Below, piece by piece: positions 1-54,816 of a stretch of 64,000 nt of DNA; position 1 is the first letter of the stretch, and each line of letters begins with the position of its first letter. This stretch comes from an uncultured candidatus Porisulfidus sp. GTDB taxonomy: Bacteria; Pseudomonadota; Gammaproteobacteria; Poriferisulfidales; Oxydemutatoraceae. Made by a program: the position numbers and the translations under genes. The notes under the pieces are model-generated. The model was given only the letters and a program-made list of their open reading frames with translations. It searched no databases and was not told the DNA's origin. The stretch is taken from assembly GCA_965215125.1 (NCBI GenBank), contig OZ244052.1, positions 32,001 through 96,000 on the forward strand, read 5' to 3'.

Positions 1-136
1 TTATAACCAACAAGGCGGCGATATACTTCGTCTTTCCACTTTGTTGCGCGAGGTTGCCAGACAAAGCCGTGGTACTTTTATTGCGTTGGATTGATTATCG
101 GGTGGTTTGCGTGGTTGACTTATGCAGAACCGTTGC

Positions 137-318
137 AACCACCTCATAAAAAGGCTTACATTTTGTATATATGCTGGGGTTCTGCACAATGTCACGCCGT
201 TTGTCTTTGCTATTCGTATTATTTCTAATAGCCATAAATAGCTGAATCTTGTATAAGGTAGCGTTCCTTGTGCTACTGCAACAAGGAACGGTTATTTGCA
301 ACAAACGGCGGTTCTATT
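137..318 (-). repeat. Composite intergenic repeat (family B hairpin element with expanded loop)
   Basis: ggttctgcacaatgtcacgccgtttgt (~178-204) and acaaacggcggttcta (301-316) form the two arms; 137-200 is homologous to 33891-33955 and, inverted, to 18753-18815. Confidence 0.7.
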
Positions 319-324
319 TTGTCT

Positions 325-15300: not shown

Positions 15301-16497
15301 GCTGCCGGCAAACCCACCTGCTATACCACTACTCATAATATTGATATTCACTCCGAGCAAACCAAGATTGCGGATTATTCCCGATGATCCTCTCAACTGC
15401 CTAAATAAACCCTGACCTCCCTGATTACGCACGATACGCAAACCAGAAATTGTGTTGCCGTTACCCTCCAATGCCGTAGCTAAACTATCTATCGGGGACC
15501 ACCCTGCTCCTTCAGTCCAAGTCGCTTTATTGCTTAAGTCTTGATAGTGTGCATCGTTGCCGAAATCCAGATGCCTGGCGATTTCATATCCGTCGCAGGT
15601 GCGGCGAGTGCCATCTTCGTCGCAACCCGAACTATTAAGGTCTATATCATCGGAGAGGGTCGGTTGATAGCCGCTGCCGTCCGTTCGGTAGCGAATTGCA
15701 TCCAAATCCTCAAGGTAGTAAATCTCTATCAATCGGTCGTCGTCTATGTCTACATCGGTTCTGTATGTTCCGAATTGTTCCGTAACCGTATACCCCTGCG
15801 CATCGGTATAGCTCAATTCCACGCGATAGCGAATGGTTGGGGTGGTGCCTTCCGGTACCGTGTAAGCGGACAGTGTTCTCGTGGTGGTTTCCGTTTTGAC
15901 ATCACGCCATTGCGTGTCGCTTAAAGCCAGAGATTGCCACGAGTATGTGAACTCGCCGTCGCCGTCTGCATCCGAGATACTATTTACAACGGCGGTTATG
16001 GAAGCGGTCGTACCCGATATATTTGAATTCAATTTCAGATTTACATCGAGGGTGGGAACAAAGTTGGGCTGCTTGATAATCGTCACTATGCTCTCGGTGC
16101 TTGCCGTAGAGCCGGCTTCGCCGACCGTCATCGTGAACACTACGGTGCTAGAAGTATAATCGCGCCCTATAAAATTCGCGGGGATGGTGACAGTCAAAGT
16201 TCGGGTGGTGGGATCCGACAGTTGCAAATTCGGATTCAACAGCTGCGACCGGTCGCGCGGTCGATATTCCCACCGATAAGAATAGTTTTCGCTATTCCCG
16301 CTGCCACCGGCAATTGCATCGCCGGGGAGGCTTAAAGTCAATTCCTCGCCTTCGTTTGCCGAACCTTCAATCGTAATCCCCTTTTGCAGAGTGATATCGG
16401 GATTCTCCGAGGGTACTTGCCCAAGCGCAGACTGACACGGCAGAACTGCAAGTAGAATAAATCGTGCTACGAATATAGGTTTTAATTTCATTTGCAT
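325..16497 (-). CDS. Giant (5390 aa) repetitive secreted/surface protein with GLUG-like beta-helix, cadherin-like/Ig-like and DxDxDG Ca-binding modules
   Basis: N-terminal signal-peptide-like segment (MKLKPIFVARFILLAVLPCQSALG); recurring motifs DIDxDxDGLIEIYYLEDL, GGLVGxN, WDFGTSEQFPILKY, YQWQR; near-identical ~2.05-kb internal repeats. Confidence 0.85.
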   Translation of the reverse strand: MQMKLKPIFVARFILLAVLPCQSALGQVPSENPDITLQKGITIEGSANEGEELTLSLPGDAIAGGSGNSENYSYRWEYRPRDRSQLLNPNLQLSDPTTRTLTVTIPANFIGRDYTSSTVVFTMTVGEAGSTASTESIVTIIKQPNFVPTLDVNLKLNSNISGTTASITAVVNSISDADGDGEFTYSWQSLALSDTQWRDVKTETTTRTLSAYTVPEGTTPTIRYRVELSYTDAQGYTVTEQFGTYRTDVDIDDDRLIEIYYLEDLDAIRYRTDGSGYQPTLSDDIDLNSSGCDEDGTRRTCDGYEIARHLDFGNDAHYQDLSNKATWTEGAGWSPIDSLATALEGNGNTISGLRIVRNQGGQGLFRQLRGSSGIIRNLGLLGVNINIMSSGIAGGFAGSLGIGIIRNSYVKGTIVGNQEIGGFAGNDLGQIINSYANVNIQGRLSGGLYGRGDARIASSYVTGSVTGLSVGAILSESNSFIENSYAANNLGNIKDNNQTGISNSYARVPSRHNELKEPTGPGTSDPELYIGWRTDRWDFGTSEQFPILKYVEDCSNDLQTERTDPPQCGTFLPDQNNGLRDLEIISEVIELDKVFASEITNYDVSFNDDTPNLTLRLKAYESDSQISVRRHGDSTDYFAGMRSTPDVGDDISLTGTEQTTVTITVREIFPVTETRYTLTLINRTLVVSGEIGIKGDGTITDNVISTTEGRSFTLTAPQVSGGIRTPSYEWTVTPENSSQLLNPNLQLSDTTTQTLTVTIPADFIGRNYTSSTVVFTLTVGDGTSSTVRSVVLKVGKTNNDTWERTPELTADGTKLNATEDIEDSDGNPGENDIGYQWQRKAVDADEWVDIDGATTKTYTILQLEYPITFNYRVGVRYTDRQGYVSDIAYSDPTPADYRPDIDTDDDGLIEVYYLEDLDAIRYQLDGSGYRTSTQARVIKAGCGYNDNGSTVCRGYELIRDLDFGIDNSYSSTANQVLWQPNESKSNEGWVPIGSNSQTTVSAPMLFEGNGYTISNLYQSTATYSGLFGNIDNTGKDPLAIYNIGLLDVDIQTRGGDNGGLAAACRNCLIANSYVTGTLSSEGTVDTLGGLVGRATTTDNNENPQYENVYARVDLIGNALHSGHLLGHADIHINNAYTRGYQREDYEGALVGSLGSASTTGTLINVYATGTKIADIMGDFLIRTSYTTQTVSILKLPTAPGTAGSELYNDWSTDIWDFGTSEQFPILKYVEDCSNDLQTQRTNLPQCGTFLPDQNDGLRDLEIISDGIELDKVFASEITRYDVSFGNETPNLTLRLKAYEGDSQISVREQGDSTDYFAGMRDTADVSDGIPLENVGETTVTITVREVFPATETEYTLSLRNRTLVVSGEIGIAGDETITDNVIATTEGRSFTLTAPQASGGSGMPDYEWTVTPEDSSQLLKPNLVLSSTSVAVLTVRVPANFIGRDYTSSTVVFTLTVGDGTFSTDRRVVLKVNKINNDTPQRDPRWVEDGISLNAIEDIEDPDGNPGDSDIGYQWQRKAIDADEWMDISGASSETYTILQPEYPITFNYRVGVRYTDAQGYLSDIAYSDSTPADYRPDIDTDNDGLIEIYYLEDLDAVRYRLDGSGYRTSTQATVIKAGCGYNDNGSTVCRGYELIRDLDFGIDNSYSSTANKVIWQPNDGKSNEGWVPIGSNNQTTVSAPMLFEGNGYAISNLYQSTATYSGLFGNIDNTGKDPLAIYNIGLLDLDIQTRGGDNGGLAAACRNCLIANSYVTGTMSSEGTVDTLGGLVGRATTTDNNTNPQYENVYARVDLTGNALHSGHLLGHADVRVNNAYARGYQQETYEGALVGSLGSDFTTGTLINVYATGTKIADIMGDSLVRTSYTTRTVSILKSPTAPGNTDSELYEKWTTDNWDFGTSEQYPILRYNSGSYDYEACSDQAPTQNTDQPQCDTFLPDQNDGLRDLEIISDGIVLDEVFASEITNYSVGFSNDTPNLTLRLKAYEGDSQISVREQGDSTDYFAGMRDTADVSDGIPLTGIEQTAVTITVREVFPITETEYTLTLMNRTLIVSQQIGITGDVMIAENVVSTTEGRSFTLEPPRIEGGFGAYRYNWAAMPENPSQLLNSKLQLRDTTNRTLTVTIPENFIGRNDTSSTVVFNLTVGDGTSSTVRSVVLKVNKINNDTSQRNPRWVEDGISLNAIEDIEDPDGNPGDSDIGYQWQRKAIDADEWMDISGASSETYTILQPEYPIAFNYRVGVRYTDAQGYLSDIAYSDSTPADYRPDIDTDNDGLIEIYYLEDLDAVRYQLDGSGYRTSTQATVIKAGCGYNDNGSTVCRGYELIRDLDFSVDSSYSSTANKVIWQPNGRKSNEGWVSIGSNSQTTVSAPMLFEGNGYAISNLYQSTATYSGLFGNIDNTGKDPLAIYNIGLLDLDIQTRGGDNGGLAAACRNCLITNSYVTGTMSSEGTVDTLGGLVGRATTTDNNANPQYENVYARVDLTGNALHSGHLLGHADVRVNNAYARGYQRETYEGALVGSLGSDFTTGTLINVYATGTKIADIMGDSLVRTSYTTRTVSILKSPTAPGDTDSELYRDWAADNWDFGTSEQFPILKYNKSGNSNYIACSSVLGLRMQSTDQPQCGTFLPDQNDGLRDLEIISDGIVLDKAFASEITRYDVSFGNETPNLRLRLKAYEGDSQISVREQGNSTDYFAGMRDTTDVSDDISLENVGETTVTVTVREVFPATETEYTLTLINRTPIVSGEIDIAGDGTITDNAISTTEGRSFTLESPRLSGGSRTYNYRWNIMPEDSSQLLNPNLVLSSTSIAVLTVRVPDDFIGRDYTSSTVVFTLTVGDGTFSTDRRVVLKVNKINNDTPQRNPRWVEDGISLNAIEDIEDADGNPNEDDIGYQWQRKAIDADEWMDISGATMETYTAPPEYPITFNYRVGVSYTDRQGYLNDIAYSEPTPTDYRPDIDIDNDGLIEIYYLEDLDAVRYRLDGSGYRTSTQARVINSGCGFDDNGSTVCRGYELIRDLDFGVDNSYSSTANKVIWQPNDGKSNEGWVSIGSNSQTTVSAPMIFEGNGYAISNLYQSTATYSGLFGNIDNTGEDPLAIYNIGLLDVDIQTRGGDNGGLAAACRNCLIANSYVTGTMSSEGMVDTLGGLVGRATTTDNNANPQYENVYARVDLTGNALHSGHLLGHADVRINNAYARGYQRETYEGALVGSLGSASTTGTLINVYATGTEIADITTNSLVRTAYTTQTVSILKSPTAPGNIDSELYEKWTTDNWDFGTSEQYPILRYNSGSYNYEACSDQAPTKSTDQPECVTFLPDQGIGLRDLNILAPTVTRTDSVFVSDRTEYTLWIRDTEERAQLELNGYDFRGIITIDGVGTATGSTMTTVALPKDTSVQNIIVADAASTAYTLTIIKTADIAGTGEITLEPMPSEDGTVDEGSTIELTSDIVGGDYRWTQPGVRALEILEQNAATITVRVLDDFVAADATTRNTVLTLTVTDLIEGDSRSISRILTIKKIDNGPAEIDFVGEFGNRQLTAIVGDDPDGNATEYRYQWQSRAPDSNSWTPVASTTTALRMVDYQIPADTTTATRYRVAVQYTDAQGYRTDEVAGNYLYRAGDNDDNDNGFIDIYTLEDLAATKSGTLQSRNRYELRRNLDFNDPLSYADTRNMNLWSANDDRSNPGWEPIPRVNGFSSYTFDGNGYTISNLYINRASTIALFRQVNVGSIISNIGLINVDIRGNNSVSGLIAFSGGMINSSYVGGSVKIGGNANTGGLVGQNGGIIADSYVIATSGTIVGLGDNTGGLVGYNFSVGTIRNSGTNVEVRGNAGVGGLIGRNEGAVRNSFARGSVTGNRHIGGLIGRSINRFGRRIVVINSYSTGDVIEGDVGSGSPNLGGLIGLPDRSIGFTPFIAAENSYTISKVIPNPNNNRRIGGLLGNKVLLGENDDTVASYWNSDVYTEGDRRPTDDDETSKTTMELQSPIDAIGIYRQWSTDNWDFGDETTYPMLRYDPASCNLDSDTARCGLLPNQQYETGLGALFLLSNGEVLNPDLRLGNQPFSVLRENYSIGILNRDEVQLRPFAVGGDDAEIKIIRDRDSRNYFSGKSSGQPSNSIPLDLDVATTVSIVVTDGDINTTYTLVMRRYDIETTSTVVDEGDEITLNTSAIGDSRSWSFIPPDSVDILSGQGTATLQVKIPDNFVPGGIETTMATLVFEVNIVDGATTYTPRETLRVNKINNGMPPDISLEVSSTTLSIVVGEGTDSDGEGEFMYTWERLHVENGRKERNEVSTSPEYRLPDTDNGSTRYFVNVTHTDGQGFTTEYADRESFILEPIKRTDIGIDDDDDGLIEIYYLDDLDAIREHLTEMPATCGQNNDQPCEGYELQRSLNFSSNDSYIGEVNRAWISTFTSSPPGWQPIGSIETPFNTVFTAATDNLFIDRLYINRPEEDNIGLFGVIGPRAKILDIQVRDPNISGRYAVGGLVGVTSRLTDSEGSVTESSLIANSSVVFTQLFRVGLNATRAWLGGLVGSNYGSIVNSYTQVRLNGDFAVGGLAGYSFGPISDSYALSFFSIPAASGIQGTDIITAGNAVGGLVGYNHSESPFKGGGSITNSYATNSVLGDFDVGGLVGYNDAGTIDNSYALGHVVGGTNVGGLVGYNSNGTIVGYAGNIVTGANNVGDLVSPESGGTVTALSTTPTLTYTGNFDGNGYSSCVVADGQTDYRVTLPACDTLLPEQDSRIGIGTPALSGVTLSVGTLEPEFDPVINAFSSFNGYEIFDIPENTTKITVTATTNIPNANLFVNVRGVRVQDNVMSSTTRENNSRTISRTIPVDDIRRVTTISIERGSARDYAIVIPAQPKLSGIPRMPCRADTIDRDGDGLIEICDLEGLYAMRYRLDADAMPKTCGERNDSACRGYELVRDLDFDKDESYRNPSENKPIWTTGKETDRGWRPIGNPSNPFNVEFSATTSHSIANLMIDRDFIRNYTGLFGYTGRNARIVNIELSDANVSGRYLTGGLVGRNEGTIINSRVTSASTVTLRNAWGGGLVGDNAGIINDSYTHSDVTGIDQIGGLVGINTGRITNSIAESDVLGVTFAGGLAGVNAGNINNSYASGTLTSITVVAFGATRVDRNFYYAGGLVGLNVGVIADTYSIGNIDGSERVGGLVGDNRNLIASSYAAVGNVVGTRLVGALVGINSGSIIDSYGDQSSRYNLVGENLPIGTIRNSETLTDDMNLQSRSSISGWRAVNWDFGTNMQYPALKYLRSETDPVDCERCGMLLQGQAMRPDFSLRVAEGESATLIETPEMPSDYMLRVDLNADNVRLIPDANIENATIRFQYRVDNEEDRMTMTENRQPFTAMIPSTARTITITLLFQDQNTNELISYRRVVDIHRVIRTQIRLFPEGLLNP
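6560..14900 (-). repeat. Four near-identical intragenic tandem units of ~2.04-2.06 kb (~680 aa)
   Basis: Anchor TFLPDQxxGLRDL recurs near 14780, 12745, 10695, 8635 and 6585; long identical nucleotide stretches between units; boundaries approximate. Confidence 0.9.
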
Positions 16498-19848: not shown

Positions 19849-20766
19849 TTACAAATGCCGGATGATTATTTTGTGTTTGTCGGCTATTGCCTCTGCCATA
19901 TGATGGCGGTGACAGCATGTGTGATCTTGCTCAAAGCAAGTGATGGCTACTCTTCGGTGCTGCCGAATGATTTTCACTACATCCTGCAATGCTTGCTTTT
20001 TATCGGTTTGGCTTAAGGTTTTTCGGTATTGATCGAACAGTTGATTATACTCAATGCGAGATTTAATATTCTTTCGCAGATCTCCCTTAATGCCTAATTC
20101 CGGGATATGGATATAAGCTATTCCGAACCTGCCGGTTATATCTTGTAGTTGTTTTTTAGAAAAGCCTTTTTTAATGCTAAAAGGATTATACCTAACATCT
20201 ATCAGTGCAGAGATGCCGTTATCGATTAAGCCTCTCAGATATTGTTCTATACTTTTTCCTTCGTAGCCTATGGTGTAAAGCGTTAAATACTTGTTCTTTA
20301 TCTGTGGTTTTTCTTTAGATATATAACGGCGCAACGGTTTAAATTTCGGTTTGTCCAGAAGCTCGCTATTGATTGCGTAGTACGGATACTTTTTATATAC
20401 CTCGTAGATAAGGGCATCATTGGAAAGTTTTCCATACTCATCAAAGATAGTGTCTAGATACTCTTCATCCTCCGGTTTCAAGTTGATCACCCCTTTAATT
20501 TTCTTATTATTTACAATGTATGCTTTGTCGTTTTTCGTTATCGTCAACAACCGATAATAATCGGCGAGTATCCGAGCATCTTCGTTAGCTTGAAATGAAT
20601 AACACCCATACTTATACGGTAAGAAATGATAAATCGGCTTCTCTTGCCGTTGGGTAAATAGAAAGAGCAACTTTTGCAAGCGGATTTTCTCCGTGCAATC
20701 TTTCCCGCGAGTCAGAATTGCCAGCAACACACGCCTGCGGTAATACAAAGTCTTGGGGAAATTCAT
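19849..20766 (-). CDS. DUF488 domain protein with an N-terminal winged-helix/SocA-like extension
   Basis: LYTIGYEG, LIDVRYNPFSIKKGFSK, HIPELGI, CFEQDHTCCHR; N-terminal LQKLLFL...YHFLPYKYGCYSF. Confidence 0.8.
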   Translation of the reverse strand: MNFPKTLYYRRRVLLAILTRGKDCTEKIRLQKLLFLFTQRQEKPIYHFLPYKYGCYSFQANEDARILADYYRLLTITKNDKAYIVNNKKIKGVINLKPEDEEYLDTIFDEYGKLSNDALIYEVYKKYPYYAINSELLDKPKFKPLRRYISKEKPQIKNKYLTLYTIGYEGKSIEQYLRGLIDNGISALIDVRYNPFSIKKGFSKKQLQDITGRFGIAYIHIPELGIKGDLRKNIKSRIEYNQLFDQYRKTLSQTDKKQALQDVVKIIRQHRRVAITCFEQDHTCCHRHHMAEAIADKHKIIIRHL

Positions 20767-20794: not shown

Positions 20795-21358
20795 TTATGA
20801 TGCGGGAATCGGACATTTTAGAGATTTAAATGAAACCGTTCCCGGAGAGTAGACAAGTGTGAAACCTTTATTTTTATATTCATGGTACTCATACTGATGC
20901 TGATCCTTGATTGGTTTCTTATTCCTCGTTTCTGATAATCCTTTTGTAATAACTATATAATGCTCTTTAATTTCTATTTCTTCGGAAAAGTATATAGCCA
21001 CCATTGAAACCAGATATTTCCAAGCAGGGATAGTATAAAGTATCTGGTTACATGCTTTTTCAAAAGTACGGCTTTCTGCGCTACTTATAGTTTTCTTCAA
21101 TTCTATAAAATAAACATCTGTGGTACTAGTGTTGGGTACTATAATTAAATAATCGCATGACTTTGTATAATTCTTTATATTAGCTATTATCGCTGGATGA
21201 AGTTGGTTCGTTCCCGTTAGATTGATAGCAAGCCCTTCACTTGGTAGTCCTAATATATTGATTTCCATATCGTTACTTTTCTCTTCCAATTTAACACGAT
21301 TTTTAACAATCCTTTTATATCTCTCTGCTTTTAGCAGCTTTTCCATAAACTTAATCAT
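20795..21358 (-). CDS. Hypothetical protein, probable PD-(D/E)XK-like nuclease partner of the adjacent ATPase
   Basis: CDYLII...VYFIELK...ACNQI pattern; 8-nt overlap with the upstream ATPase. Confidence 0.55.
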   Translation of the reverse strand: MIKFMEKLLKAERYKRIVKNRVKLEEKSNDMEINILGLPSEGLAINLTGTNQLHPAIIANIKNYTKSCDYLIIVPNTSTTDVYFIELKKTISSAESRTFEKACNQILYTIPAWKYLVSMVAIYFSEEIEIKEHYIVITKGLSETRNKKPIKDQHQYEYHEYKNKGFTLVYSPGTVSFKSLKCPIPAS

Positions 21359-22745
21359 CTTCCAGCGTCTCTATATCTATATAGGTATTCAGTTCTCCGC
21401 ATATCAGGTTGATATTATCAATCGCATTATCAAAAACTGACATCTCTTTAATGCCTCTTTCGTCTATATTACATGGACTTAACTTCCCATCTTCACAGAT
21501 ATATGCTTTAACAGAATTAGGGTTCAAGCAATCATTCTCCGTATATTCTTTTTTATGCTTTTCAAGAAATTCTTTCTTCCCTTCAAAATTTCGATGCAAC
21601 ATAATCAAGTTATCAATTTCCTTGATTATATAATCACTGTGGGTTGTTATCAGTACCTTTATCCCATTGTTAACACAAAATGCCAAAAGCCGAGCCATTA
21701 AAACTTGATTGCTCGGGCTCAAATGGCTCTCGGGTTCATCAATAATAAGAATTTGCCCTGATATCGCAAGATGTTTTAAGTAAAAATATAAGCTCAAAAT
21801 CCCGCGAGCAGATGACGAAGCAAGATGTAAAGGTATCTCAAATCTATTTTTTCCTCTTTTATTGGAGATAAATTTAATTACATCTTTTTCTACTTTATAG
21901 TAGCCACCTATCATATTCTTTACTAAACTCACTGCATCCGTTGTCAATCCATTTTTCTGTTTTGCAACATACAATAAATCCCTAATGAAATCTACGTTGT
22001 GCTGTATAGATATCGCATAGCGTGCACTCGCTTTTTCAATAAACTCAATTGGGTCAAAATCTTCGGTATCTGATAATCTTTGTAGCTCCTGAACCAGTCT
22101 ATTTCTAGTAAAATCTAATTCTTTATAAAAAAGCGAGATGCCAAACCTTTCGGCAGGTAGAATAAATGGTTCAACACTATCCTCTCGGACCATTTTTTCA
22201 AAGAAAATATGTGGTTTTTTAAGTTGACTTGGGAATGTAGCATATTCTGGATTATCAATCTTAAATTTTAGATTTTCACTTTGAGAGAAGTATTTTATTA
22301 ATGCTTTTGCACCCTCGGTATTCCGTATTGGAATTTCTCCTTTTATTAGTTCATTTTCTTCTTCAAACCGAAAGCTAGCTTTTTCAAATTCGTTTTTCGG
22401 ACAACTAAAAACCTGATGAATAATTCTTTGTGAAAAAAGTTTGGATGCTGCCTTCATCAACCAATTACTCATATTCCGGTATTCAGCAAGAGTTATTTCT
22501 GCCGACCCTGTCGCTTCTATTTGCTGAGCAGTTTCTTTAATTTTTACAAAATATTCCTCAGGGTATTTTCCGAGCCTATAGAAAAGATTAAATCCACTAT
22601 CTTTCCAAAAATCTAAAAAGCCATAGAGTGTATAAACCAAATAGGTTTTACCGGTGTTATTTTGCCCGGCAATAATGGTTAAATCCCCCAGTTCCAATTC
22701 GGCATCTTTAATCGGACCGATATTTTGAAATCTTGCTTTAATCAT
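21351..22745 (-). CDS. ABC/AAA_15-21-type ATPase (defence-associated)
   Basis: NIGPI start, Walker A GQNNTGKT, signature-like ASSSARG, Walker B IIDEPESHLSP, ITTHSDY. Confidence 0.88.
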   Translation of the reverse strand: MIKARFQNIGPIKDAELELGDLTIIAGQNNTGKTYLVYTLYGFLDFWKDSGFNLFYRLGKYPEEYFVKIKETAQQIEATGSAEITLAEYRNMSNWLMKAASKLFSQRIIHQVFSCPKNEFEKASFRFEEENELIKGEIPIRNTEGAKALIKYFSQSENLKFKIDNPEYATFPSQLKKPHIFFEKMVREDSVEPFILPAERFGISLFYKELDFTRNRLVQELQRLSDTEDFDPIEFIEKASARYAISIQHNVDFIRDLLYVAKQKNGLTTDAVSLVKNMIGGYYKVEKDVIKFISNKRGKNRFEIPLHLASSSARGILSLYFYLKHLAISGQILIIDEPESHLSPSNQVLMARLLAFCVNNGIKVLITTHSDYIIKEIDNLIMLHRNFEGKKEFLEKHKKEYTENDCLNPNSVKAYICEDGKLSPCNIDERGIKEMSVFDNAIDNINLICGELNTYIDIETLEDD

Positions 22746-22792: not shown

Positions 22793-25603
22793 TCAACCGG
22801 TGATTTGCTCTTGGTTCTGTTGATTATTAGCATATTCTGCTAGAACATCTATTATCTCGGCAGGCTCTTTTGCGATCTCAAAAGCCCACACCCCGTATTT
22901 GCCATCTTCGTTGACCGCTTGAACCCACTCCTTCATATATCTATGCTTTTCGTCGTTCCTAGCTATGTCCGGTTGCCATCCCTTTACTTCAAGTACGAGA
23001 TGCTGTCCGGATTTCAACCGAATGATAAAGTCGGGATAATATCTTCTAAGCACACCATTGTGAACATAAAGTACACTGAAACCAATGTGGTCGTTTTTGA
23101 CCCATGCGTCTATCATTGCATCTCTATCTAATTGGAATGTACTAAAGCCTTCCCACCTACTATCAAAAACGCACCGATTGATATGGCTTTTTTTGGTTAT
23201 CTTGGTCGGCTTCCCGGTGCGCCACGGACGCATATCCCCGGTTGAGCAGATAGGATGGTTGCTATCAAGCACCAACGATGTTTTTTCGGTGTTGTCCTGC
23301 TTGATTGCATCCCCAAAATGGCGTATGACCGATGTCATCTTAAGTGCTATCACAAGTTTTCTTCTTAATTCATTGTTATTATAGGATTTAGGCTTCACTT
23401 CGATAAGATCCGAGTTGATAAATTGTTCGGCTAGCCGCACGAGCTCGGCTATCAGTATCGGTTCGGGGATTTTCCAGTCGAGTTTGATTTCTTCGTACAC
23501 CGACTGGGCTGCCTTGAAAATCAATGTCTGCTTTCTATTTGTTCGCATAAACTCTTCAAGATCTATATCTCGTATTCTAGAAATATCGGGTTTACCGCCT
23601 ACAGTCTCAGCCATCTCTACTATTTCTATAATTTCGGTTGCATCGATCGGCAGTGGATCAACTTTTTCCCAATCTACCGAAAGCCTATGCTTATAAGCTC
23701 TATCTATTCTGATAACATTCGGCCATTGAATAGCAAATTTTTGCTTTGAATCTAGCGGTTGAACGGTAATTTTATTACCCTTACCCCCACCTCCGCCATC
23801 ATTTGTTCTTTCGTGTGGTAAAAAAGTAAACGGCACACCGAATACTTCAACATATTCCGGCTCGAACAAACCGGTGTCTTCGTTAACATCGTAACATGAA
23901 CGACGCAACCCTCTGCCTACAACCTGCTCGCATAATAACTGGCTGGTAAATGCCCGCAATCCCATGATATGTGTGACCGTATGCGCATCCCACCCTTCGG
24001 ATAGCATATCTACCGAGATAACATTTTGTATCTTTTCTCCCGGCTTACCCTCTTGTCCGACAGTATTTACTTTTTCTCTGAGCGTTTCCACTTTTGCCTT
24101 TTTCGTAGCCCTCGCTTTTGGTGTTTTGTCTCCTTCGTCGGTTTCCGTAGGACTCGATTCCATCGCTTCCTCTTTTTTCAGCACCTTTGAATCTATATGC
24201 AAAATACCGTCTTGGTTACAAAACAACTCCGAATCCGTTATGTGCTTATGCCTAAACGCATGCGCAATGCGCTCCGCCGTTTCCGTTCTATTGGTAACCG
24301 TAATCATTACCGGAGGGGTTGGCGCATCAGCCCATTCTTTCTTTACTTTATCCCAATCCGCTCCGAGTAAAAAATAGGCATTCTTAATCAGTTGAGGCAA
24401 CGGTTCATGAGATCTAGCTTTACGATTTAAGTCGGCTTTAACATCGGGGTCGCTATATATATGGTAGAGCCGAGATTTGTTAGTTCCTGAATCCGATAAT
24501 GTATCATCGTCAATAGCGATGTGCGGTGTTTTAACCAAACCGGCTTCAATCGCATCGTTCAACCCGAAATCACTGACAATCCATCTAAACAAAGACTCCT
24601 CGGTTGTTCTATTGCTACCGGGTGCAAACGGTGTTGCGGAAAAATCAAAGCAAGTCAAAATACCTTGTGCTTCGTGCAGTCGGTCAAGCCCACCCACCCA
24701 GATAGTTGCCTCCTCTTCTTCATCCTTTTTGATACCTTTCATCGACGAACCTGCAGGAATACGCCATGCGTGGTGTGCTTCGTCGTTGATAACGATAATG
24801 TTTTTGGCTTTTGCCATATCACCGAGCACATCTCGAGCATAGGCATTGTCGCTTTTGACACTGCGTTTATCTACGCTCTTTTTCTTGTTAATTTTCTCTT
24901 CGCTGTCCCACTGGAGTGCGTGCCAGTTGCGTATCAATACCTTTGCCTGTGCAAGTTTCTCTCTTAAAGACACCGGCACAACATCAAATTCCTCATAATA
25001 GTTTTTAGGCTCGGAAGGCATGAGTACCGAAAGACGCTCTCTAACCGTCAAGTTCGGGGCAACAACGAAGATATTCTTAGAGAAGCGACCGTCATTGGGA
25101 TAAGTTGCCTTGTTGATTACTTGCCAAGCAATCAACATTGCCATCACGACCGTCTTGCCGGTGCCGGTAGCGAGTTTGGAACACAAACGGCGAAACGATC
25201 CACCGTCACCCTCAACATCAATACCGGTTTTTTCCGAATCGGGTGTTTCAATCAGCCATATTAAGGTTTCAATCGCCTCAATCTGACAAAAGAAAAACCG
25301 ACGCTCTCGTCGCTCTTCGTCTTGCCAATGCTCAAGTAGTGCTTTGGTGACACCGGTAATGCCCGGGCGACCGGCATCACGCCATTTATCTACACGCTGC
25401 CGAATCTTATTAACTAAAGGCAACTCTATGAATACCCCCATATCTTGATAAGGTTTCGTTGCCCTAGGGTCGGAGACTAAATAGCCCGCCGAGCGACGCT
25501 TGTCTACGAGTTCGGGAGGAGAATCGCTATCGGAAAATTTCCAGTGTTTTGACGGGTATTTATACGGTGAATTGATGATAAGACTAGATTTCATACTTTG
25601 CAT
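22793..25603 (-). CDS. res: Type III restriction enzyme Res subunit (SF2 helicase + PD-(D/E)XK endonuclease)
   Basis: FFCQIEAIET, ATGTGKT, INDEAHH, SATP, MLSEGWD, EQVVGRGLRR; C-terminal YYPDFII...LEVKG. Confidence 0.93.
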   Translation of the reverse strand: MQSMKSSLIINSPYKYPSKHWKFSDSDSPPELVDKRRSAGYLVSDPRATKPYQDMGVFIELPLVNKIRQRVDKWRDAGRPGITGVTKALLEHWQDEERRERRFFFCQIEAIETLIWLIETPDSEKTGIDVEGDGGSFRRLCSKLATGTGKTVVMAMLIAWQVINKATYPNDGRFSKNIFVVAPNLTVRERLSVLMPSEPKNYYEEFDVVPVSLREKLAQAKVLIRNWHALQWDSEEKINKKKSVDKRSVKSDNAYARDVLGDMAKAKNIIVINDEAHHAWRIPAGSSMKGIKKDEEEEATIWVGGLDRLHEAQGILTCFDFSATPFAPGSNRTTEESLFRWIVSDFGLNDAIEAGLVKTPHIAIDDDTLSDSGTNKSRLYHIYSDPDVKADLNRKARSHEPLPQLIKNAYFLLGADWDKVKKEWADAPTPPVMITVTNRTETAERIAHAFRHKHITDSELFCNQDGILHIDSKVLKKEEAMESSPTETDEGDKTPKARATKKAKVETLREKVNTVGQEGKPGEKIQNVISVDMLSEGWDAHTVTHIMGLRAFTSQLLCEQVVGRGLRRSCYDVNEDTGLFEPEYVEVFGVPFTFLPHERTNDGGGGGKGNKITVQPLDSKQKFAIQWPNVIRIDRAYKHRLSVDWEKVDPLPIDATEIIEIVEMAETVGGKPDISRIRDIDLEEFMRTNRKQTLIFKAAQSVYEEIKLDWKIPEPILIAELVRLAEQFINSDLIEVKPKSYNNNELRRKLVIALKMTSVIRHFGDAIKQDNTEKTSLVLDSNHPICSTGDMRPWRTGKPTKITKKSHINRCVFDSRWEGFSTFQLDRDAMIDAWVKNDHIGFSVLYVHNGVLRRYYPDFIIRLKSGQHLVLEVKGWQPDIARNDEKHRYMKEWVQAVNEDGKYGVWAFEIAKEPAEIIDVLAEYANNQQNQEQITG

Positions 25604-25609
25604 TATAGG

Positions 25610-25984
25610 TTAAGGGATTAAATTTTCCTTCGGTACGAAAAAAGGCGGCATCTCACACCATACAACATGTCCCTTTCTAATCCAATAATGACATCTACAC
25701 GAATGTCTGGTAACAAATATGGAAGGATTGAGAGTCAATGTGCCGTTTTTATGTTCCTGAACCTTCCATCTCCTAACAGAGTCCGCAGAGACTTCCAAGT
25801 GAATGATTTTCTTGCATTTTTTCTTAGGACAGGTAATCGCAGCATAAAAAGGATATTTCCGCCCCCCTATGATATAGATTGTATTTTTCTCTATATTGTC
25901 GGGTAGATCCTCAACCCATTTTGTCCTATATCGCTTTTTGAGCCTTTGAGTGTAGTTGAATATCTTAAGTAAGTATCTTATGAT
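25610..25984 (-). CDS. DUF6527-like protein (124 aa; the ORF track shows only the last 62 aa); non-ATG or mutated start
   Basis: Frame is open from ATC at 25984 (5 nt after GGAGG): IIRYLLK...WVEDLPDNIEKNTIYIIGGRKYPFYAAITCPKKKCKKIIHLEV...RW...GTLTLNPSIFV...CRCHYWIRKGHVVW. Confidence 0.7.
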   Translation of the reverse strand: MIRYLLKIFNYTQRLKKRYRTKWVEDLPDNIEKNTIYIIGGRKYPFYAAITCPKKKCKKIIHLEVSADSVRRWKVQEHKNGTLTLNPSIFVTRHSCRCHYWIRKGHVVWCEMPPFFVPKENLIP

Positions 25985-27378
25985 TTTTTCCTCCTTTTTA
26001 AGTTTTGAATTAGCATACTCCCTTCTCCCGTACCTAGATATTTCTTAAAGACAGAACCGTCGTCGCTTTCATTCTCTTGATTCAAATAACACCCTTGAAC
26101 CAACTGGAATGTTTGAGTGCCAAATTTTGAATTATCGTCTAATCTAAAATTATGGAGCCGCGCCAAAAAATCGTTAAATGCCAAACAAGCCGCCTGCATA
26201 TTAACGGACATTACGGCAGGTTGATCTTCCACAACACCTTTCAAGTACCCTTCTTGTATCCGTTTTTTGTAATGTTTCACATCATCACGCTTTAACCTCT
26301 CTGCCGTAACCTGCTCGCTCGTATAAACCCCTCTATCTAATAAGCTACAACTATCGGGATGTATATATCGGGAAACGGCATTCGCCTGAGAAATACCACC
26401 TTTGCCATCGGACTCTAAATAAACACCGACATCAAAATAAGGAATCAAATATGCCTTAGAGATACACTCCAGATGATAGCGCCCTGCTGCAGAATCCACA
26501 CAACCAAAAACAATATCGCAATCAACCAAAGACTCTATGGAGCCTTTATCGTAAGTATCCAATTTATGTATTTCCACATTTACATTCATATCCATTTTTT
26601 CAATCGCTCGCCGCAAAACTTCAACTTTGAATACACCTTTTTTTGCATCGCTTTTTTGGGAGTTCATAATGCGGTTAAGGTTTTTTTCTTCTACGACATC
26701 CGGGTCTATCAATACTAAACTGCCTATACAGTTACGCGCTAAAAGTTCAACTATGATGCTGCCGGTTCCCGAACACCCCACCACACCGACTTTCAATAAG
26801 CGAAGTAAATCAAAAGTTCCTTTACCGAAAGTCTGCGATATTCTGGTTGCATAACCGGGAATTTTACTTTTTGATTTGGTCTGCTTCCATATCTTAATAT
26901 TTTCACCGACAACCGATACACTTTCTACAAGAGTAAACTCTCCGTGCTCATTGTATGTTCTAGCTTTGATGCTACCGTCCGGAAGCATAATCGCCGAACC
27001 GTTGAGTCGATTATCGTCAAACCACGCGGATATTGAATGAAACAAAGCTCTATCATTTTCATCGTCGGTTATCGAGAAATCATTGCAACCCTTCGGATGA
27101 CTATGGATAGTAAATACCGAGAGTTTCTTTTTATCTATTTGATCTATCTTTTGAGGTGGCATATATTGGGAAAACGGCCAAGATACATAAATCGGAGTTT
27201 GTTTCTCGTATTCGGACGGTGGAATTAGTATCGCCTCTCCGACTATCAGTCTAGTGCTTTGCAATCCTATCCCCGATGCGCAAAGCATAACTGCAGCGGC
27301 TTCCAACTTATCCCCCGAATGTAGATGATCTTTTAAGGTTTTATGGGTAGCTTCGCCGAGTACTAGAGATGTATACAT
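25978..27378 (-). CDS. JAB/JAMM peptidase - ThiF/E1-like adenylyltransferase fusion
   Basis: N-terminal E...HSHP-x6-S-x2-D JAMM motif (IHSHPKGCNDFSITDD); C-terminal VGVVGCSGTGS, DPDVVEEKNLNR, GCVDS, PAVMSVN. Confidence 0.9.
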   Translation of the reverse strand: MYTSLVLGEATHKTLKDHLHSGDKLEAAAVMLCASGIGLQSTRLIVGEAILIPPSEYEKQTPIYVSWPFSQYMPPQKIDQIDKKKLSVFTIHSHPKGCNDFSITDDENDRALFHSISAWFDDNRLNGSAIMLPDGSIKARTYNEHGEFTLVESVSVVGENIKIWKQTKSKSKIPGYATRISQTFGKGTFDLLRLLKVGVVGCSGTGSIIVELLARNCIGSLVLIDPDVVEEKNLNRIMNSQKSDAKKGVFKVEVLRRAIEKMDMNVNVEIHKLDTYDKGSIESLVDCDIVFGCVDSAAGRYHLECISKAYLIPYFDVGVYLESDGKGGISQANAVSRYIHPDSCSLLDRGVYTSEQVTAERLKRDDVKHYKKRIQEGYLKGVVEDQPAVMSVNMQAACLAFNDFLARLHNFRLDDNSKFGTQTFQLVQGCYLNQENESDDGSVFKKYLGTGEGSMLIQNLKRRKKS

Positions 27379-27390
27379 TTATAAACCCTA

Positions 27391-27783
27391 TTAAGCCTCA
27401 TTTTTTAATGTGTCCTCTACCCAAGACAAATGATATACAACATTATGGTGGTTAGGATTCCATTCATAGTGCCTAGACCATCTCTGCCAATTTTTATTAA
27501 AATGATTTTCATCGGCAAGACAAGCGATTGCTTCCCCGTCCGTGCGAACTATAGCGGGAGAAAAATAAAACATATCTATTTCAACGACCGGGTAGTCAGT
27601 TGGAATGATTATCATCAGGTCGGATTTTTCAGGCGTGTATTTTGAAGAGGGTAATGGATAATCGCAAATAATTATGCCATACTCGCCGCCTTCGGAGACC
27701 GGTTTCCAACAACTAAAATTTGCATTTAGATATTCTATGTCTTCTTCAGACAACCTCTCTTTAAGTAAATCATGTTCTGCCAC
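27391..27783 (-). CDS. Prokaryotic E2/UBC-like protein (Prok-E2_E type)
   Basis: YPLP...IIIPTDYP...IDMFYFSP...WQRWSRH motifs; lies between Ubl and E1 genes. Confidence 0.8.
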   Translation of the reverse strand: MAEHDLLKERLSEEDIEYLNANFSCWKPVSEGGEYGIIICDYPLPSSKYTPEKSDLMIIIPTDYPVVEIDMFYFSPAIVRTDGEAIACLADENHFNKNWQRWSRHYEWNPNHHNVVYHLSWVEDTLKNEA

Positions 27784-27785
27784 CT

Positions 27786-28523
27786 CTAACCTTGTTGTGC
27801 TTGTTTCATAACCGTCTCAAAACGTTCAACTCCTTCCTCAGCAAAATCCACAATCTCTTCCGGTTCTATAGATTTTCTAAGTCCGCCACTAAATTTTCGA
27901 TTAAGCGACCATTCGCTATAATTTTTTCCTGCTAGGCTTAAAATTTCACGACCTTCCCTCTCTCGCTTATCCACTATGTACTTTTTTTTATCAATCTTGA
28001 TTTCATATTTGTCAAATTTCGGAGGTATGCGTCCCTTTTTTGCACACTCTTCCAAATCAACTGAATCATCGTCGCCGGAAGGCACCGTAAAATACACATC
28101 GGTCTCTTGAACAACGAGAGTCATATCATCTTGTATCAAATCGTCGGTTTTGCCTGCTACATCTGCAAACAGTTTAGGTGATTCCAATTCCTCGTCTCTG
28201 CACGAAATATCATTGCCGATTAACTTTACTTTCTCTAATCCTTGTTCAATCTTCTTGCCGTTGAACTCAAAACGTACAGGGTTTCGGACCGAAGGGTTAT
28301 CTCCTATATCCTCGTTAATGTTATCAACAAATATATCCTCGCCACCGTGAATAATGATGTAGTCATCGGGTAATAACGGAATATCTATATCTCCGGATTT
28401 ATTGAGATAAAGACATTTCTCATCGGACTTGATGCCCGAATTTTCGTATAATTTACCTACTTGTGTAAGCCCTTTTTCTCTTTCTGTTTGCTCACCGGCT
28501 AACATTATTGTAACTTTGCTCAT
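27786..28523 (-). CDS. Multi-ubiquitin-like (three beta-grasp domains) protein ending in Gly
   Basis: Three ~70-aa Ubl-like segments; last one YEIKIDK...GREILSLAGK...IVDFAEEGVERFET; C-terminus QAQQG-stop. Confidence 0.8.
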   Translation of the reverse strand: MSKVTIMLAGEQTEREKGLTQVGKLYENSGIKSDEKCLYLNKSGDIDIPLLPDDYIIIHGGEDIFVDNINEDIGDNPSVRNPVRFEFNGKKIEQGLEKVKLIGNDISCRDEELESPKLFADVAGKTDDLIQDDMTLVVQETDVYFTVPSGDDDSVDLEECAKKGRIPPKFDKYEIKIDKKKYIVDKREREGREILSLAGKNYSEWSLNRKFSGGLRKSIEPEEIVDFAEEGVERFETVMKQAQQG

Positions 28524-28524
28524 C

Positions 28525-29100
28525 TTAATTTCTCCGACTATGATTAGCTTGTGATTTTATCATATCCCCTCGGAGCCTGTTATATGCTTGTTGAGAAGTT
28601 AGAATATCCGCACCTTTCCTGCGTCCACTGCTCGTAGGAATTCTCAGCAGCTTTTGGCGACGCACTCCTATTTGGGTTCCTTCGTCAATCATGTCCCTTC
28701 GGTCATTCGTAATCAAAATACGACCTTGCTTGAACGCTACATAAACAAAAAATTTATCGGTTCCCGGTTTGCCTTGAGGTTCGGAAATGATTCCTTTAAT
28801 ACCCACCATCAATTTATCATTAAGATAAACTGTTATACATTTATGGTTTTCAGGTTTCACCCAATAACGGAGCAAGCGTCTCTTTTTAGAGTCATCATTA
28901 ATCTGCTGAATCCTTTTGGTTAAGCGCTTATGATATTCATCGGTGATTCTTCTTTTATCATCTACCAACAGCTTTATTTTGTCATTACATAGCTGCTTTA
29001 ATAATTGGTCAATATGCCTGTTTGTATTTTCCCGAGGGTTTAATAAATGCTCAAAAATATTGGTATCTATTGCAATAGAATCCTTTGTTAGGTTATCCAT
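28525..29100 (-). CDS. PIN-domain-like putative ribonuclease
   Basis: IAIDTNIF (N-terminal Asp), DEY, TDKFFVYVA, LITNDRRD acidic residues in PIN order; 8-nt overlap with the ATPase. Confidence 0.6.
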   Translation of the reverse strand: MDNLTKDSIAIDTNIFEHLLNPRENTNRHIDQLLKQLCNDKIKLLVDDKRRITDEYHKRLTKRIQQINDDSKKRRLLRYWVKPENHKCITVYLNDKLMVGIKGIISEPQGKPGTDKFFVYVAFKQGRILITNDRRDMIDEGTQIGVRRQKLLRIPTSSGRRKGADILTSQQAYNRLRGDMIKSQANHSRRN

Positions 29101-30370
29101 CTCGATCGTCGGACGCCCCCATATTTAGCTCCTCTATCAAATCGGCACCGAAAAACTCCATAGGTAATCCCTTTTGCATAGTTCCATCATCTTTGATAGT
29201 AAGATTGGTGACCGTAGGTATTTTTTCGTCATAATTAAAATAAGCGATTGAAACATCCTTGGGCGATATATGTCCTTTGACAACATGGTTACGAATTCTC
29301 AACAGAATATTCTCGCTATGGGTCTCAATAATTGACCCGACCTTGCGTTCTTTCCATAAATCAACAAAGAAACTTCCCATTTCAATTTGGGCGGTCGGAT
29401 GAATTTGTGCTTCGGGTTGTTCAACGATCAACTGCGAATAAGAGTTCATCAAAAGCCCTTGAACAAATACCGGCATACATTGGCTAACACCGAAACCAAA
29501 ACAAGATAGATTAACTTTGGCTTTGCCCATTTCGTGTATTGCTGAACATGCGGCGAATTGATTTTCCAGCTCCTTTATAGTGATGTAATCTATGTTTAAT
29601 ACCTTTTTAGCATGCTTAATTAAAAGCTCTCTCTTCTTTTTATTCTCGAGAATTTTCTCTCTCCATAATTGAAAAACCGTATCCTCTCCCATTTTTCCTA
29701 CATATCTATTAGGATGTGGATGGTATATCGGAGCAAATCCTTCCAGCTCTTCTCTAGCAGCTGCTAAATGTTCTAAAGATTGAATATCTCCTGTAAGTTT
29801 TTCTACACATCTTCTCATAACAGAGTCTAATACCAATTCATCTATCGGTTCATTTTTAGAAATTGACTCATTTATTTCTATTGGTTCGTCTGTGGAATAA
29901 AGAAATGTAGAATTTGATGAAATATCCGATGACCCTTCTAAAAAGCGTTTACCTTTCCCTAATAAATTTATTTTTTGCTTACCCGAAAATATACCATTTT
30001 TGTTATATGGGGTTATTACCTTAACCTCGTATTCTCTTATTATGTCGCTTATCTTATGTTCTTTGAGAAAGTTAAAAAAATAGCCGCTAGGGCTATCATA
30101 TTCATCATCAACCTTCAAAGAAAAAGTAAGATTAGGTAATCTTCTATTTTTGTTTTTTAGTTCATAAAATACGCCGAGATCAGTTTCTTCACCACTGGTA
30201 GTCAAGAAACTTCTAGTGTTTGTGGTTGATTGCTTAAGCATCATCAAAAACTTAATAATAGAGGATTTTCCCGAATTGTTTTTCCCTATCAGAATAGTAA
30301 TAGGACGAAATCTCACGGTGACTTTATCTCCGAATAAACGAAAATTAGACAATTTAAGCTCTTTGATCAT
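29093..30370 (-). CDS. ABC/AAA-type ATPase with DUF3696-like C-terminus
   Basis: LSNFRLF, Walker A GKNNSGKSS, GFGVSQCMP, VEQPEAQIHP, IETHSE, C-terminal DDGT...LPMEFFG; ATGA overlap with mod. Confidence 0.88.
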   Translation of the reverse strand: MIKELKLSNFRLFGDKVTVRFRPITILIGKNNSGKSSIIKFLMMLKQSTTNTRSFLTTSGEETDLGVFYELKNKNRRLPNLTFSLKVDDEYDSPSGYFFNFLKEHKISDIIREYEVKVITPYNKNGIFSGKQKINLLGKGKRFLEGSSDISSNSTFLYSTDEPIEINESISKNEPIDELVLDSVMRRCVEKLTGDIQSLEHLAAAREELEGFAPIYHPHPNRYVGKMGEDTVFQLWREKILENKKKRELLIKHAKKVLNIDYITIKELENQFAACSAIHEMGKAKVNLSCFGFGVSQCMPVFVQGLLMNSYSQLIVEQPEAQIHPTAQIEMGSFFVDLWKERKVGSIIETHSENILLRIRNHVVKGHISPKDVSIAYFNYDEKIPTVTNLTIKDDGTMQKGLPMEFFGADLIEELNMGASDDRDG

Positions 30371-49997: not shown

Positions 49998-50785
49998 ACA
50001 AATCTAAATCTGAGTACCCGCAATATATAGCGATAGTGCTTTATACGCTATTGAGACGAGAGATATTACGTTTTATGCGTATTTGGATACAGACTTTGCT
50101 ACCGCCGGCGATAACGACGGTGCTGTATTGCGTTATCTTCGGCGAGCTGGTCGGTCGGCAGCTCTCCGGCATGGGAGGATACACCTATATGGAATACATT
50201 ATTCCGGGATTAATCCTGATGGCGGTAATCACCAATTCCTACAGCAATGTCGTCACCTCGTTCTACAGCACCCGCTTTCATAAAAACATAGAGGAAATGC
50301 TTATCTCACCGATGCCTGCATACATATTAATGATAGGCTTTATTGCCGGCGGCATGGCAAGAGGCTTAGTCGTAGGTCTGGTCGTCTGGATAGTCTCCTT
50401 AGTATTTGCAACGCTCCCCTTCCCCGATTTCGGTTTGACAATCGTCGTGTTGCTGTTGACTTCTGCGGTATTTTCCACTGCCGGCATGATCAACGGTATA
50501 TATGCCAGAAGTTTCGATGGGATTTCAATCATTCCCACTTTTATTTTGATGCCTTTGACCTATTTGGGCGGTGTCTTTTATTCGGTAGAAATACTACCCG
50601 AGGTATGGCGCAACATCACTTTATTCAATCCGATTTTTTATATGATAGATATATTCAGACACGCCAGCATGGGATTTAGTGATGTCAATGTTTCCAGATC
50701 TCTGATTATCCTGGCCGGCTGTTTAGTCGTTTTGGTAACTATTTGCCTACAGCTGCTGGTACGAGGTGTTCGCATACGCAACTGA
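49994..50785 (+). CDS. yadH: ABC-2 type transporter permease (YadH-like)
   Basis: RFMRIWIQTLLPPAIT, PGLILMAVITNSYSNV, PLTYLGGVFYS, NPIFYM. Confidence 0.85.
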   Translation: MNKSKSEYPQYIAIVLYTLLRREILRFMRIWIQTLLPPAITTVLYCVIFGELVGRQLSGMGGYTYMEYIIPGLILMAVITNSYSNVVTSFYSTRFHKNIEEMLISPMPAYILMIGFIAGGMARGLVVGLVVWIVSLVFATLPFPDFGLTIVVLLLTSAVFSTAGMINGIYARSFDGISIIPTFILMPLTYLGGVFYSVEILPEVWRNITLFNPIFYMIDIFRHASMGFSDVNVSRSLIILAGCLVVLVTICLQLLVRGVRIRN

Positions 50786-50792
50786 TCTACCG

Positions 50793-53438: not shown

Positions 53439-53526
53439 AGAGAAATGGCAAGCACAACCGAATTCTCCGGAATTAATAAATGCTTGCGTTATAATCGGTG
53501 ACAATCAAACGATAACCGATATTACT

Positions 53527-54810: not shown

Positions 54811-54816
54811 GAGATA

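Follow-up and report, generated by a model that had tools for sequence, protein, structure and literature searches.

The stretch analysed here (the window) comprises 64,000 nucleotides (nt) of an uncultured candidatus Porisulfidus sp. (contig OZ244052.1, positions 32,001 to 96,000), taken from a genome assembled as a single 2.22-Mb contig and 99% complete, and all positions below are counted along the whole stretch. A preliminary description, made from the letters alone, drew attention to its minus-strand segment 25610-28523 as a ubiquitin-like conjugation module of Bub type, apparently devoid of canonical catalytic cysteines. This segment lies within a series of eight tightly packed minus-strand genes (22793-32973), in which both subunits of a Type III restriction-modification (R-M) system enclose an NsnB-like ATPase, a PIN-like gene and four bub genes. 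From mod to res, the features are as follows (values are E-values).

30367-32973, minus strand: mod, Type III DNA methyltransferase, 868 amino acids (Pfam N6_N4_Mtase, 2.9e-31; PADLOC MTase_III, 5.5e-157)
29093-30370, minus strand: ABC/AAA_15 ATPase, 425 amino acids (Pfam AAA_15, 1.4e-20; PADLOC NsnB, 1e-49, and PDC-M55A, 2.2e-38)
28525-29100, minus strand: PIN-like protein, 191 amino acids, tentative (Pfam PIN_12, 0.0072, under the cut-off)
27786-28523, minus strand: bubA, three-domain ubiquitin-like protein (Ubl), 245 amino acids (Pfam Multi_ubiq, 8.4e-10; AlphaFold2; Foldseek)
27391-27783, minus strand: bubB, cysteine-free E2, 130 amino acids from GTG (Pfam Prok-E2_E, 9e-30; Citrobacter BubB 9eae_C)
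25978-27378, minus strand: bubCD, fusion of JAB/JAMM peptidase and E1, 466 amino acids (Pfam ThiF, 9.3e-24, and Prok-JAB, 2.4e-5; Citrobacter BubCD 9ea4)
25990-25996, minus strand: Shine-Dalgarno-like AAGGAGG of bubE (read from the DNA)
25610-25984, minus strand: bubE, DUF6527 Ser-His protease by homology, 123-124 amino acids (Pfam DUF6527, 1.3e-14; open frame)
22793-25603, minus strand: res, Type III restriction subunit, 936 amino acids (Pfam ResIII, 1.7e-10; PADLOC REase_III, 3.3e-12)

Gaps between adjacent genes of the series measure 1 to 12 nt, and overlaps 4 to 8 nt: the ATPase gene shares 4 nt with mod and 8 nt with the PIN-like gene, the PIN-like gene stands directly upstream of bubA with a 1-nt gap, and res starts 6 nt past the bubE stop. 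Scans for promoters and terminators gave no excess over shuffled sequences and were uninformative on operon structure. The four bub genes very probably make up a complete Bub ("6E"/DUF6527) pathway of the JAB-E1 type, which most likely would work as the Bub of Citrobacter does. Type I Bub of Citrobacter sp. RHBSTW-00271 (BubAB, BubCD, BubE; PDB 9ea4, 9eae, 9ea8, 9d5a) served as the reference, and the window shares with it the fusion of JAB to E1, the Prok-E2_E type E2 with Ser and His, the three-domain Ubl with Gly, the DUF6527 protease and all catalytic residues. In that system the substitutions Y370F in BubCD and S333A/H335A in BubB abolish BubA conjugation in vitro and in E. coli (Ye et al., 2024; 10.1101/2024.11.21.623953).

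The motif WQRWSRH, in which serine had been noticed at the place of the expected catalytic residue, occupies residues 99-105 of BubB and aligns letter for letter with the motif of Citrobacter BubB (9eae_C, E = 7.7e-17), which was the sole match of BubB in a search of PDB sequences, QRWSRH being identical. BubB carries D70, S103 (codon 27477-27475) and H105, and Ser103 corresponds to Citrobacter S333, the published nucleophile. The three residues are invariant in six BubB orthologues from cassettes of the same eight-gene type, and D/S/H is found in 64 of 66 loci; the comparative set as a whole comprised 73 loci with 67 distinct BubCD sequences (a few being duplicates).

BubCD consists of a JAB domain (residues ~1-165) and an E1 adenylation domain (~170-466), and its residues 5-438 match Citrobacter BubCD (9ea4) with E = 7.6e-67. 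The JAMM motif, reported earlier as intact, is indeed represented by E26, H92, H94 and D105, and the E1 part contains a Gly-rich loop (201-207), R236 and the crossover-loop Tyr378 (codon 26247-26245). Counting residues along the 9ea4 alignment, with the +2 N-terminal offset of the chain allowed for, equates E26 with E28, H92/H94 with H91/H93, D105 with D104, R236 with R227 and Y378 with Y370. All these Glu, His, Asp, Arg and Tyr residues are invariant in six orthologues and in 67 of 67 fully covered loci, the other six of the 73 being cut by contig ends. CxxC was sought throughout BubCD and none was found, nor is there any cysteine in residues ~355-385, the crossover loop as estimated from the 9ea4 alignment. 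The segments previously singled out in this connection, HPDSCSLLDRG and EGYLKG before PAVMSVN, correspond to residues 340-350 and 376-393, respectively; five orthologues have Asn or Ala in place of the cysteine of HPDSC, and the tyrosine of EGYLKG, proposed as a possible E1 nucleophile, is Tyr378, the counterpart of the published nucleophile Y370.

The third component, BubA, fits the initial reading of a Ubl with three beta-grasp domains that ends in Gly and needs no maturation. Its AlphaFold2 model (mean predicted local distance difference test, pLDDT, 93.2) folds into three beta-grasp units, and the best Foldseek matches were the three-domain multi-ubiquitin 9cd2 of E. coli ZDHYS365 (E = 6.9e-10) and Citrobacter 9d5a (E = 2.9e-9), the last domain being superimposed on Citrobacter BubA(155-229) (9ea8_B) with a template-modelling score of 0.78 and root-mean-square deviation of 1.6. 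The protein terminates in ...KQAQQG with the TAG directly after the codon of Gly245 (27791-27789), and the RFETV.KQAQQG end is kept in homologues. bubA and bubB are separate genes, the GTG of bubB lying 2 nt past the bubA stop in another frame, and the same split is observed in all six cassette relatives. Since one extra base after GGT would join the two frames, a sequencing error or frameshift in a BubAB fusion was considered, and it was rejected because the closest homologues (92%, 82%, 80%, 79% and 76% identical), as well as the protein of genome G282, also end exactly at QQG. Among the 120 listed of 184 BubA homologues with E <= 0.001, 33 stop at QQG, 67 bear a tail of 1-9 amino acids, 19 are fused to the E2 and one is truncated, which brings the split form to 100 of 120; judging by these sequences, free-standing BubA is the norm near the protein of the window. 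For the 73 loci the distribution is 24 ending at Gly, nine with a short tail, 26 fusions and 14 without BubA match, mostly on short contigs. The length of BubA differs within the cassette type, amounting to 95, 99 and 150 amino acids in the relatives L014, L015 and L017 against 245-254 elsewhere, so that the RFET..QAQQG end stays constant although beta-grasp domains differ in number.

Such a ready-made BubA raises the question of what the JAB domain is for. The Citrobacter JAB domain processes the BubAB pre-protein, cleaving it behind the conserved Gly (Ye et al., 2024; 10.1101/2024.11.21.623953). The JAMM residues have been retained at all 24 loci in which BubA terminates with Gly. As BubA of the window has no tail and the JAMM site is preserved, the JAB domain here probably has a second substrate. 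The preliminary description ascribed it to deconjugation rather than processing: a conserved catalytic role of JAB beyond Ubl maturation is a reasonable inference from the tail-less BubA and the retained JAMM site (and a side claim to the restriction reading discussed below), with deconjugation as a putative role only. Against a second role stands the observation that conjugates accumulated despite an intact JAB domain, which may act mainly or only on the pre-protein (Ye et al., 2024; 10.1101/2024.11.21.623953).

The gene of the DUF6527 protein had to be redrawn. It is not the TTG-initiated open reading frame of 62 amino acids (25610-25798), the frame being open back to 26044 (144 codons). Positions 3-63 of the 63 of the Pfam DUF6527 profile are matched only with the upstream part included (also in the whole-genome profile match), and BubE orthologues have 120-140 amino acids (homologues, 105-140). 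Within the 144-codon open frame no ATG, GTG or TTG precedes the domain. The AAGGAGG element at 25996-25990 precedes ATC 25984 by 5 nt and ATA 25981 by 8 nt, the ATA candidate overlapping the bubCD stop (25980-25978), and one of these two codons is the likely start of bubE; in the alignment with 18 homologues, the ATG of bubE in L015 falls on the ATA codon of the window. ATA and ATC are rare and weak start codons. Residues C52, C57, S88, C96, C98 and H99 of BubE are invariant in the same alignment; across the wider set C52/C57/S88/C96/H99 are present in 63 of 64 loci, the remaining locus being cut, and C98 is replaced by Ser in 49 loci. Ser88 and His99 (PS...CH), already proposed as the catalytic pair, correspond to the S92/H102 dyad published for Citrobacter BubE. 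With bubE placed in the -1 frame of bubCD, its fusion to BubCD by -1 frameshifting on an A6 run was also tried as an explanation and found no comparative support: nothing longer than 259 amino acids occurs among the best 150 of 648 DUF6527 representatives.

The start of bubE lends itself to another interpretation, namely that the module is decaying or deregulated, its deconjugating protease having been silenced by loss of the start codon, and that the copy in the window is broken or acts unchecked. The lack of ATG, GTG and TTG in the whole frame speaks for it, as do the ATG starts of bubE in the relatives L013, L015 and L016, in the second of which ATG stands exactly where the window has ATA. 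It is nevertheless unlikely, in view of the intact frame with all conserved residues, of the consensus AAGGAGG 5-8 nt upstream, of the overlap between the start and the bubCD stop, as is usual where translation is coupled, and of the integrity of all other cassette genes.

Provided that the four genes do form a working Bub pathway, the following course of events may be proposed. BubA would be synthesized with a free C-terminal Gly245 and, as read directly from the sequence, would require no maturation cut. The E1 domain of the BubCD dimer would, by homology, adenylate Gly245 with ATP, after which Tyr378 on the cysteine-free crossover loop would take BubA over as an oxyester and pass it to Ser103 of BubB, assisted by His105 and Asp70; BubB would then hand BubA to a lysine of a target. 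BubE, by means of Ser88/His99 and presumed zinc-binding cysteines, would strip BubA from targets, its output maybe being kept low by the ATA/ATC start. For Citrobacter, BubE (DUF6527) is described as a weak Ser-His peptidase removing conjugates in cells, where S92A or H102A restores conjugates, and the oxyester intermediates were, according to the accessible part of the text, deduced from mutants and structures and not chemically trapped (Ye et al., 2024; 10.1101/2024.11.21.623953). An oxyester character of the pathway, as first suggested for the window, is made probable by the homology of BubCD and BubB with Citrobacter proteins (E = 7.6e-67 and 7.7e-17) and the presence of every catalytic residue.

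Several considerations weigh against this reading. Each chemical step assigned to the window rests on homology, with the Citrobacter oxyesters themselves deduced rather than trapped. None of the Bub operons protected E. coli from phage, and Bub targets are stated to be unknown (Ye et al., 2024; 10.1101/2024.11.21.623953). With no ATG, GTG or TTG start, BubE may be barely made or dead. Nesting between mod and res is limited to one subclade, since at the metagenome loci L023-L026, the nearest relatives outside it (53-55% identical in BubCD), no adjoining mod, res, ATPase or PIN-like gene was found, and the same neighbours are missing from all loci with BubCD identity of 45% or less, several of them with 10-kb flanks. 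One may also suppose that nothing is conjugated at all, the cysteine-free E2 being an inactive RWD-like domain and the E1 only adenylating BubA for some other chemistry; such E2 domains were called probably inactive in the accessible part of Iyer et al. (2006; PMC1779556), while the Bub systems of Citrobacter and E. coli do conjugate BubA in dependence on the very Tyr and Ser that are invariant here, which makes this possibility highly improbable.

Cysteine-free chemistry of this kind is already known (Ye et al., 2024, preprint; "6E" operons of Iyer et al., 2006), and with both the chemistry and the operon family published the core finding adds no new mechanism. What is added here is a ready-made BubA combined with an intact JAB site, a non-canonical bubE start and an eight-gene cassette in a Type III restriction operon. 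Type I Bub is defined by the BubAB fusion, said to hold in all Type I operons (10.1101/2024.11.21.623953); the window has BubCD with intact JAMM and no BubAB fusion. Unlike its Citrobacter counterpart, BubA of the window ends exactly at Gly, leaving nothing for JAB to cut, and the bubE start is non-canonical; the first two cysteines of BubE form a CPxxxC pair, where Citrobacter BubE is described with C57/C59/C61; and the genes are set inside a Type III R-M operon, whereas the Citrobacter operon resides in a tRNA-linked island. Type II Bub (E. coli ZDHYS365: BubA, BubBD, BubE) shares with the window free-standing BubA, Tyr/Ser chemistry and BubE, and the fold of its triple Ubl is matched (9cd2), but its E2 is fused to the E1, JAB is usually absent and the E2 serine goes together with Lys and His. 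The polyUbl row in Table 1 of Iyer, Burroughs and Aravind (2006; PMC1779556) enumerates polyUbl, a cysteine-free E2-like protein, JAB-E1 and a small metal-binding protein, and the polyUbl-E2 fusion is noted there, in the accessible part, "in some species" only. The part list of these "6E" operons is the same as in the window, although in the portion available the E2 was predicted to be inactive and R-M operons served only as an analogy. Bil (BilABCD) and Cap2/Cap3 of Type II CBASS likewise place Ubl or E1/E2/JAB conjugation modules in defence loci, but employ catalytic cysteines and thioesters, with adenylation domains arranged in tandem in the Bil E1; the E1 of the window gives weak matches to PADLOC E1-E2 models (2.7e-11 at best).

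The two outer genes and the two preceding bubA belong to other families. Mod of the MTase_III type and Res with the ResIII helicase domain occur in one operon, as expected for Type III R-M. EcoP15I is an example of a Type III mod-res pair; the window differs from such pairs in having six extra genes between mod and res. With Menshen (NsnABC) the cassette shares an NsnB-like ABC ATPase followed by a PIN-like protein, and Menshen often adjoins R-M systems, as stated in the accessible portion of the corresponding paper (PMC12065111). NsnA (ParB-DUF262) was not found in the cassette, the two GmrSD_N matches of the genome being located at 995 kb and 1441 kb (~0.9 and 1.4 Mb off). According to the same portion of that paper, NsnC is an inactive PIN-like protein with a C-terminal effector, its inPIN domains lacking the acidic residues (PMC12065111), whereas the 191-amino-acid protein of the window has no extra domain and keeps these residues, with D12, E55, D115 and D133 invariant in an alignment of six orthologues. 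A PIN fold for this protein is tentative: the AlphaFold2 model is of low confidence (pLDDT 63), Foldseek with this model returned nothing at E <= 0.001, the best Z in VIA-align was 4.7, VapC/PIN chains at Z 3-4 accounting for most rows, and 30 matches in an Atlas search comprised 29 unnamed clusters and one PIN cluster. Prediction of a complex between the PIN-like protein and BubB scored 0.00, which argues neither for nor against binding. Homologues of the PIN-like protein were found only in the cassette genomes and one remnant (7 of 61 genomes). In this remnant (L106, genome G018, contig C132, 2-745) a PIN-like gene interrupted by a stop comes after the C-terminal end of a cassette-like ATPase; gatB comes next, and there are no bub genes.

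BubCD orthologues (53-58% identical) were detected in 5 of 60 related genomes, the four genomes of the same genus having none, and a sample of 400 genomes of the class contained four with a BubCD match at E <= 1e-30, that of the window included. A BubCD search of genome contigs yielded a single locus, L002, on a contig of an Oligoflexia metagenome-assembled genome cut inside bubCD, in which bubE has a GTG start and no res follows. The eight-gene order is the same in G006, G007, G014, G019 and G046, and also in G282, whose contig ends before mod, giving with the window seven genomes in at least three families with protein identity to the window ranging from 35% (ATPase) to 66% (Mod). The trees built from BubCD and from Res of the seven cassettes have identical unrooted topology, and the ATPase tree shares three of four splits. 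This evidence indicates that the eight-gene operon is inherited as a unit. The cassette tree cuts across taxonomy, grouping G046 (family f2) with G014 (family f1) and the window with G282 (family f16), and because of this discordance the unit was probably also transferred as a whole between genomes.

Some relatives carry additional genes in the mod-res interval. An IetA/IetS pair is found there in L013 (10564-15782; PADLOC 1.4e-133 and 1.5e-253) and in L017 (13333-16715; 1.8e-99 and 2.5e-250), inserted at different places and each time beside a short duplicated 5' fragment of res, and L013 also holds a Schlafen AlbA_2/HATPase_c_4 gene. Beside the G282 cassette, on the other strand (L019, 365-4885), weaker matches resembling Mod (37% identity), the ATPase (43%) and Res (28%) may represent a second R-M-like set with an embedded ATPase. 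In G046 (L014, reverse-complement, about 1-3900) the cassette comes directly after genes which, judged by eye, resemble a pyruvate dehydrogenase operon; the window has aceE, aceF and lpd (50766-56247) on the opposite strand, at a distance of about 18 kb. The pyruvate dehydrogenase E1 of the genome has relatives at 88-95% identity, while its nearest named ones (Methylobacillus, Methylophaga and a Piscirickettsiaceae metagenome-assembled genome) reach 62-65%, by which the organism would seem to belong to an uncultured pseudomonadotal lineage.

In the window itself, res is directly followed by a PD-T4-4 pair (20795-22745, minus strand) composed of an ATPase of 464 amino acids (PD-T4-4_A, 3.2e-106) and a partner of 187 amino acids weakly matching PD-T4-4_B/PDC-M47B; such a pair was not found beside the cassette in five relatives. 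The GC (guanine plus cytosine) content is 0.33-0.37 at 20-23 kb versus about 0.48 at 15-20 kb. Farther along, a giant open reading frame of 5390 amino acids (325-16497, minus strand) with GLUG motifs and a Cadherin-like domain probably encodes a surface adhesin-like protein. The genes flanking the island encode a DUF488 protein and, immediately upstream of mod, a pentapeptide-repeat protein, and two further ones resemble PDDEXK_2 transposases:

19849-20766, 33014-33763, 34718-35674 and 37005-37928, minus strand: flanking genes (DUF488, pentapeptide-repeat, two PDDEXK_2 transposase-like)

Two explanations for the presence of Bub between mod and res have to be compared. The first regards the mod-res interval of this Type III lineage as a landing site for defence genes, with Bub being autonomous, and this may equally well be true or not. 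It accounts for IetAS with the duplicated res 5' fragment at two different places in L013 and L017, for the Schlafen AlbA_2 gene in L013, for PD-T4-4 placed after res in the window only and for the occurrence of Bub elsewhere without R-M genes, but it sits poorly with congruent trees and with the block of ATPase, PIN-like and Bub genes, which is constant in order and content in 7 of 7 cassettes, whereas other cargo varies. The second supposes functional integration, in which Bub, together with the NsnB-like ATPase and the PIN-like protein, would serve the Type III restriction system as an accessory component. Once restriction is engaged, Bub could, for instance, attach its tag to a phage protein or to Res, Mod or the PIN-like protein, and in this way switch restriction or the nuclease on or off. 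The arguments for such integration are the abutting or overlapping genes, the eight-gene order kept at 35-66% protein identity in seven genomes from at least three families, the identical BubCD and Res topologies (with three of four splits for the ATPase) in a tree across taxonomy suggestive of whole-unit transfer, and the restriction of PIN-like homologues to cassette genomes and one remnant. Most Bub operons examined stand without R-M genes, however, and the unrelated IetAS is nested in the same interval in two relatives, as in a cargo hotspot, and we regard integration as possible yet rather doubtful. A link between Bub and Type III R-M is not mentioned in the literature texts searched, supplementary tables (e.g., Table S1 with 544 Bub operons) being outside the search; the word "restriction" is absent from Ye et al. 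(10.1101/2024.11.21.623953) and Gong et al. (10.1101/2024.11.21.623966), as is "ubiquitin" from the Menshen paper (PMC12065111).

The combination of common, free-standing and ready-made BubA with a preserved JAMM site questions the view that JAB serves only the cleavage of the BubAB pre-protein. The broader proposition, that cysteine-free Ubl tagging is triggered by, or controls, Type III restriction of foreign DNA, is put forward with considerable reserve, as somewhat improbable. If true, it would provide the first biological role for Bub pathways and the case of a restriction enzyme regulated by ubiquitin-like conjugation. The locus, being a compact eight-gene unit, offers a concrete place to seek the partners and the trigger of Bub.

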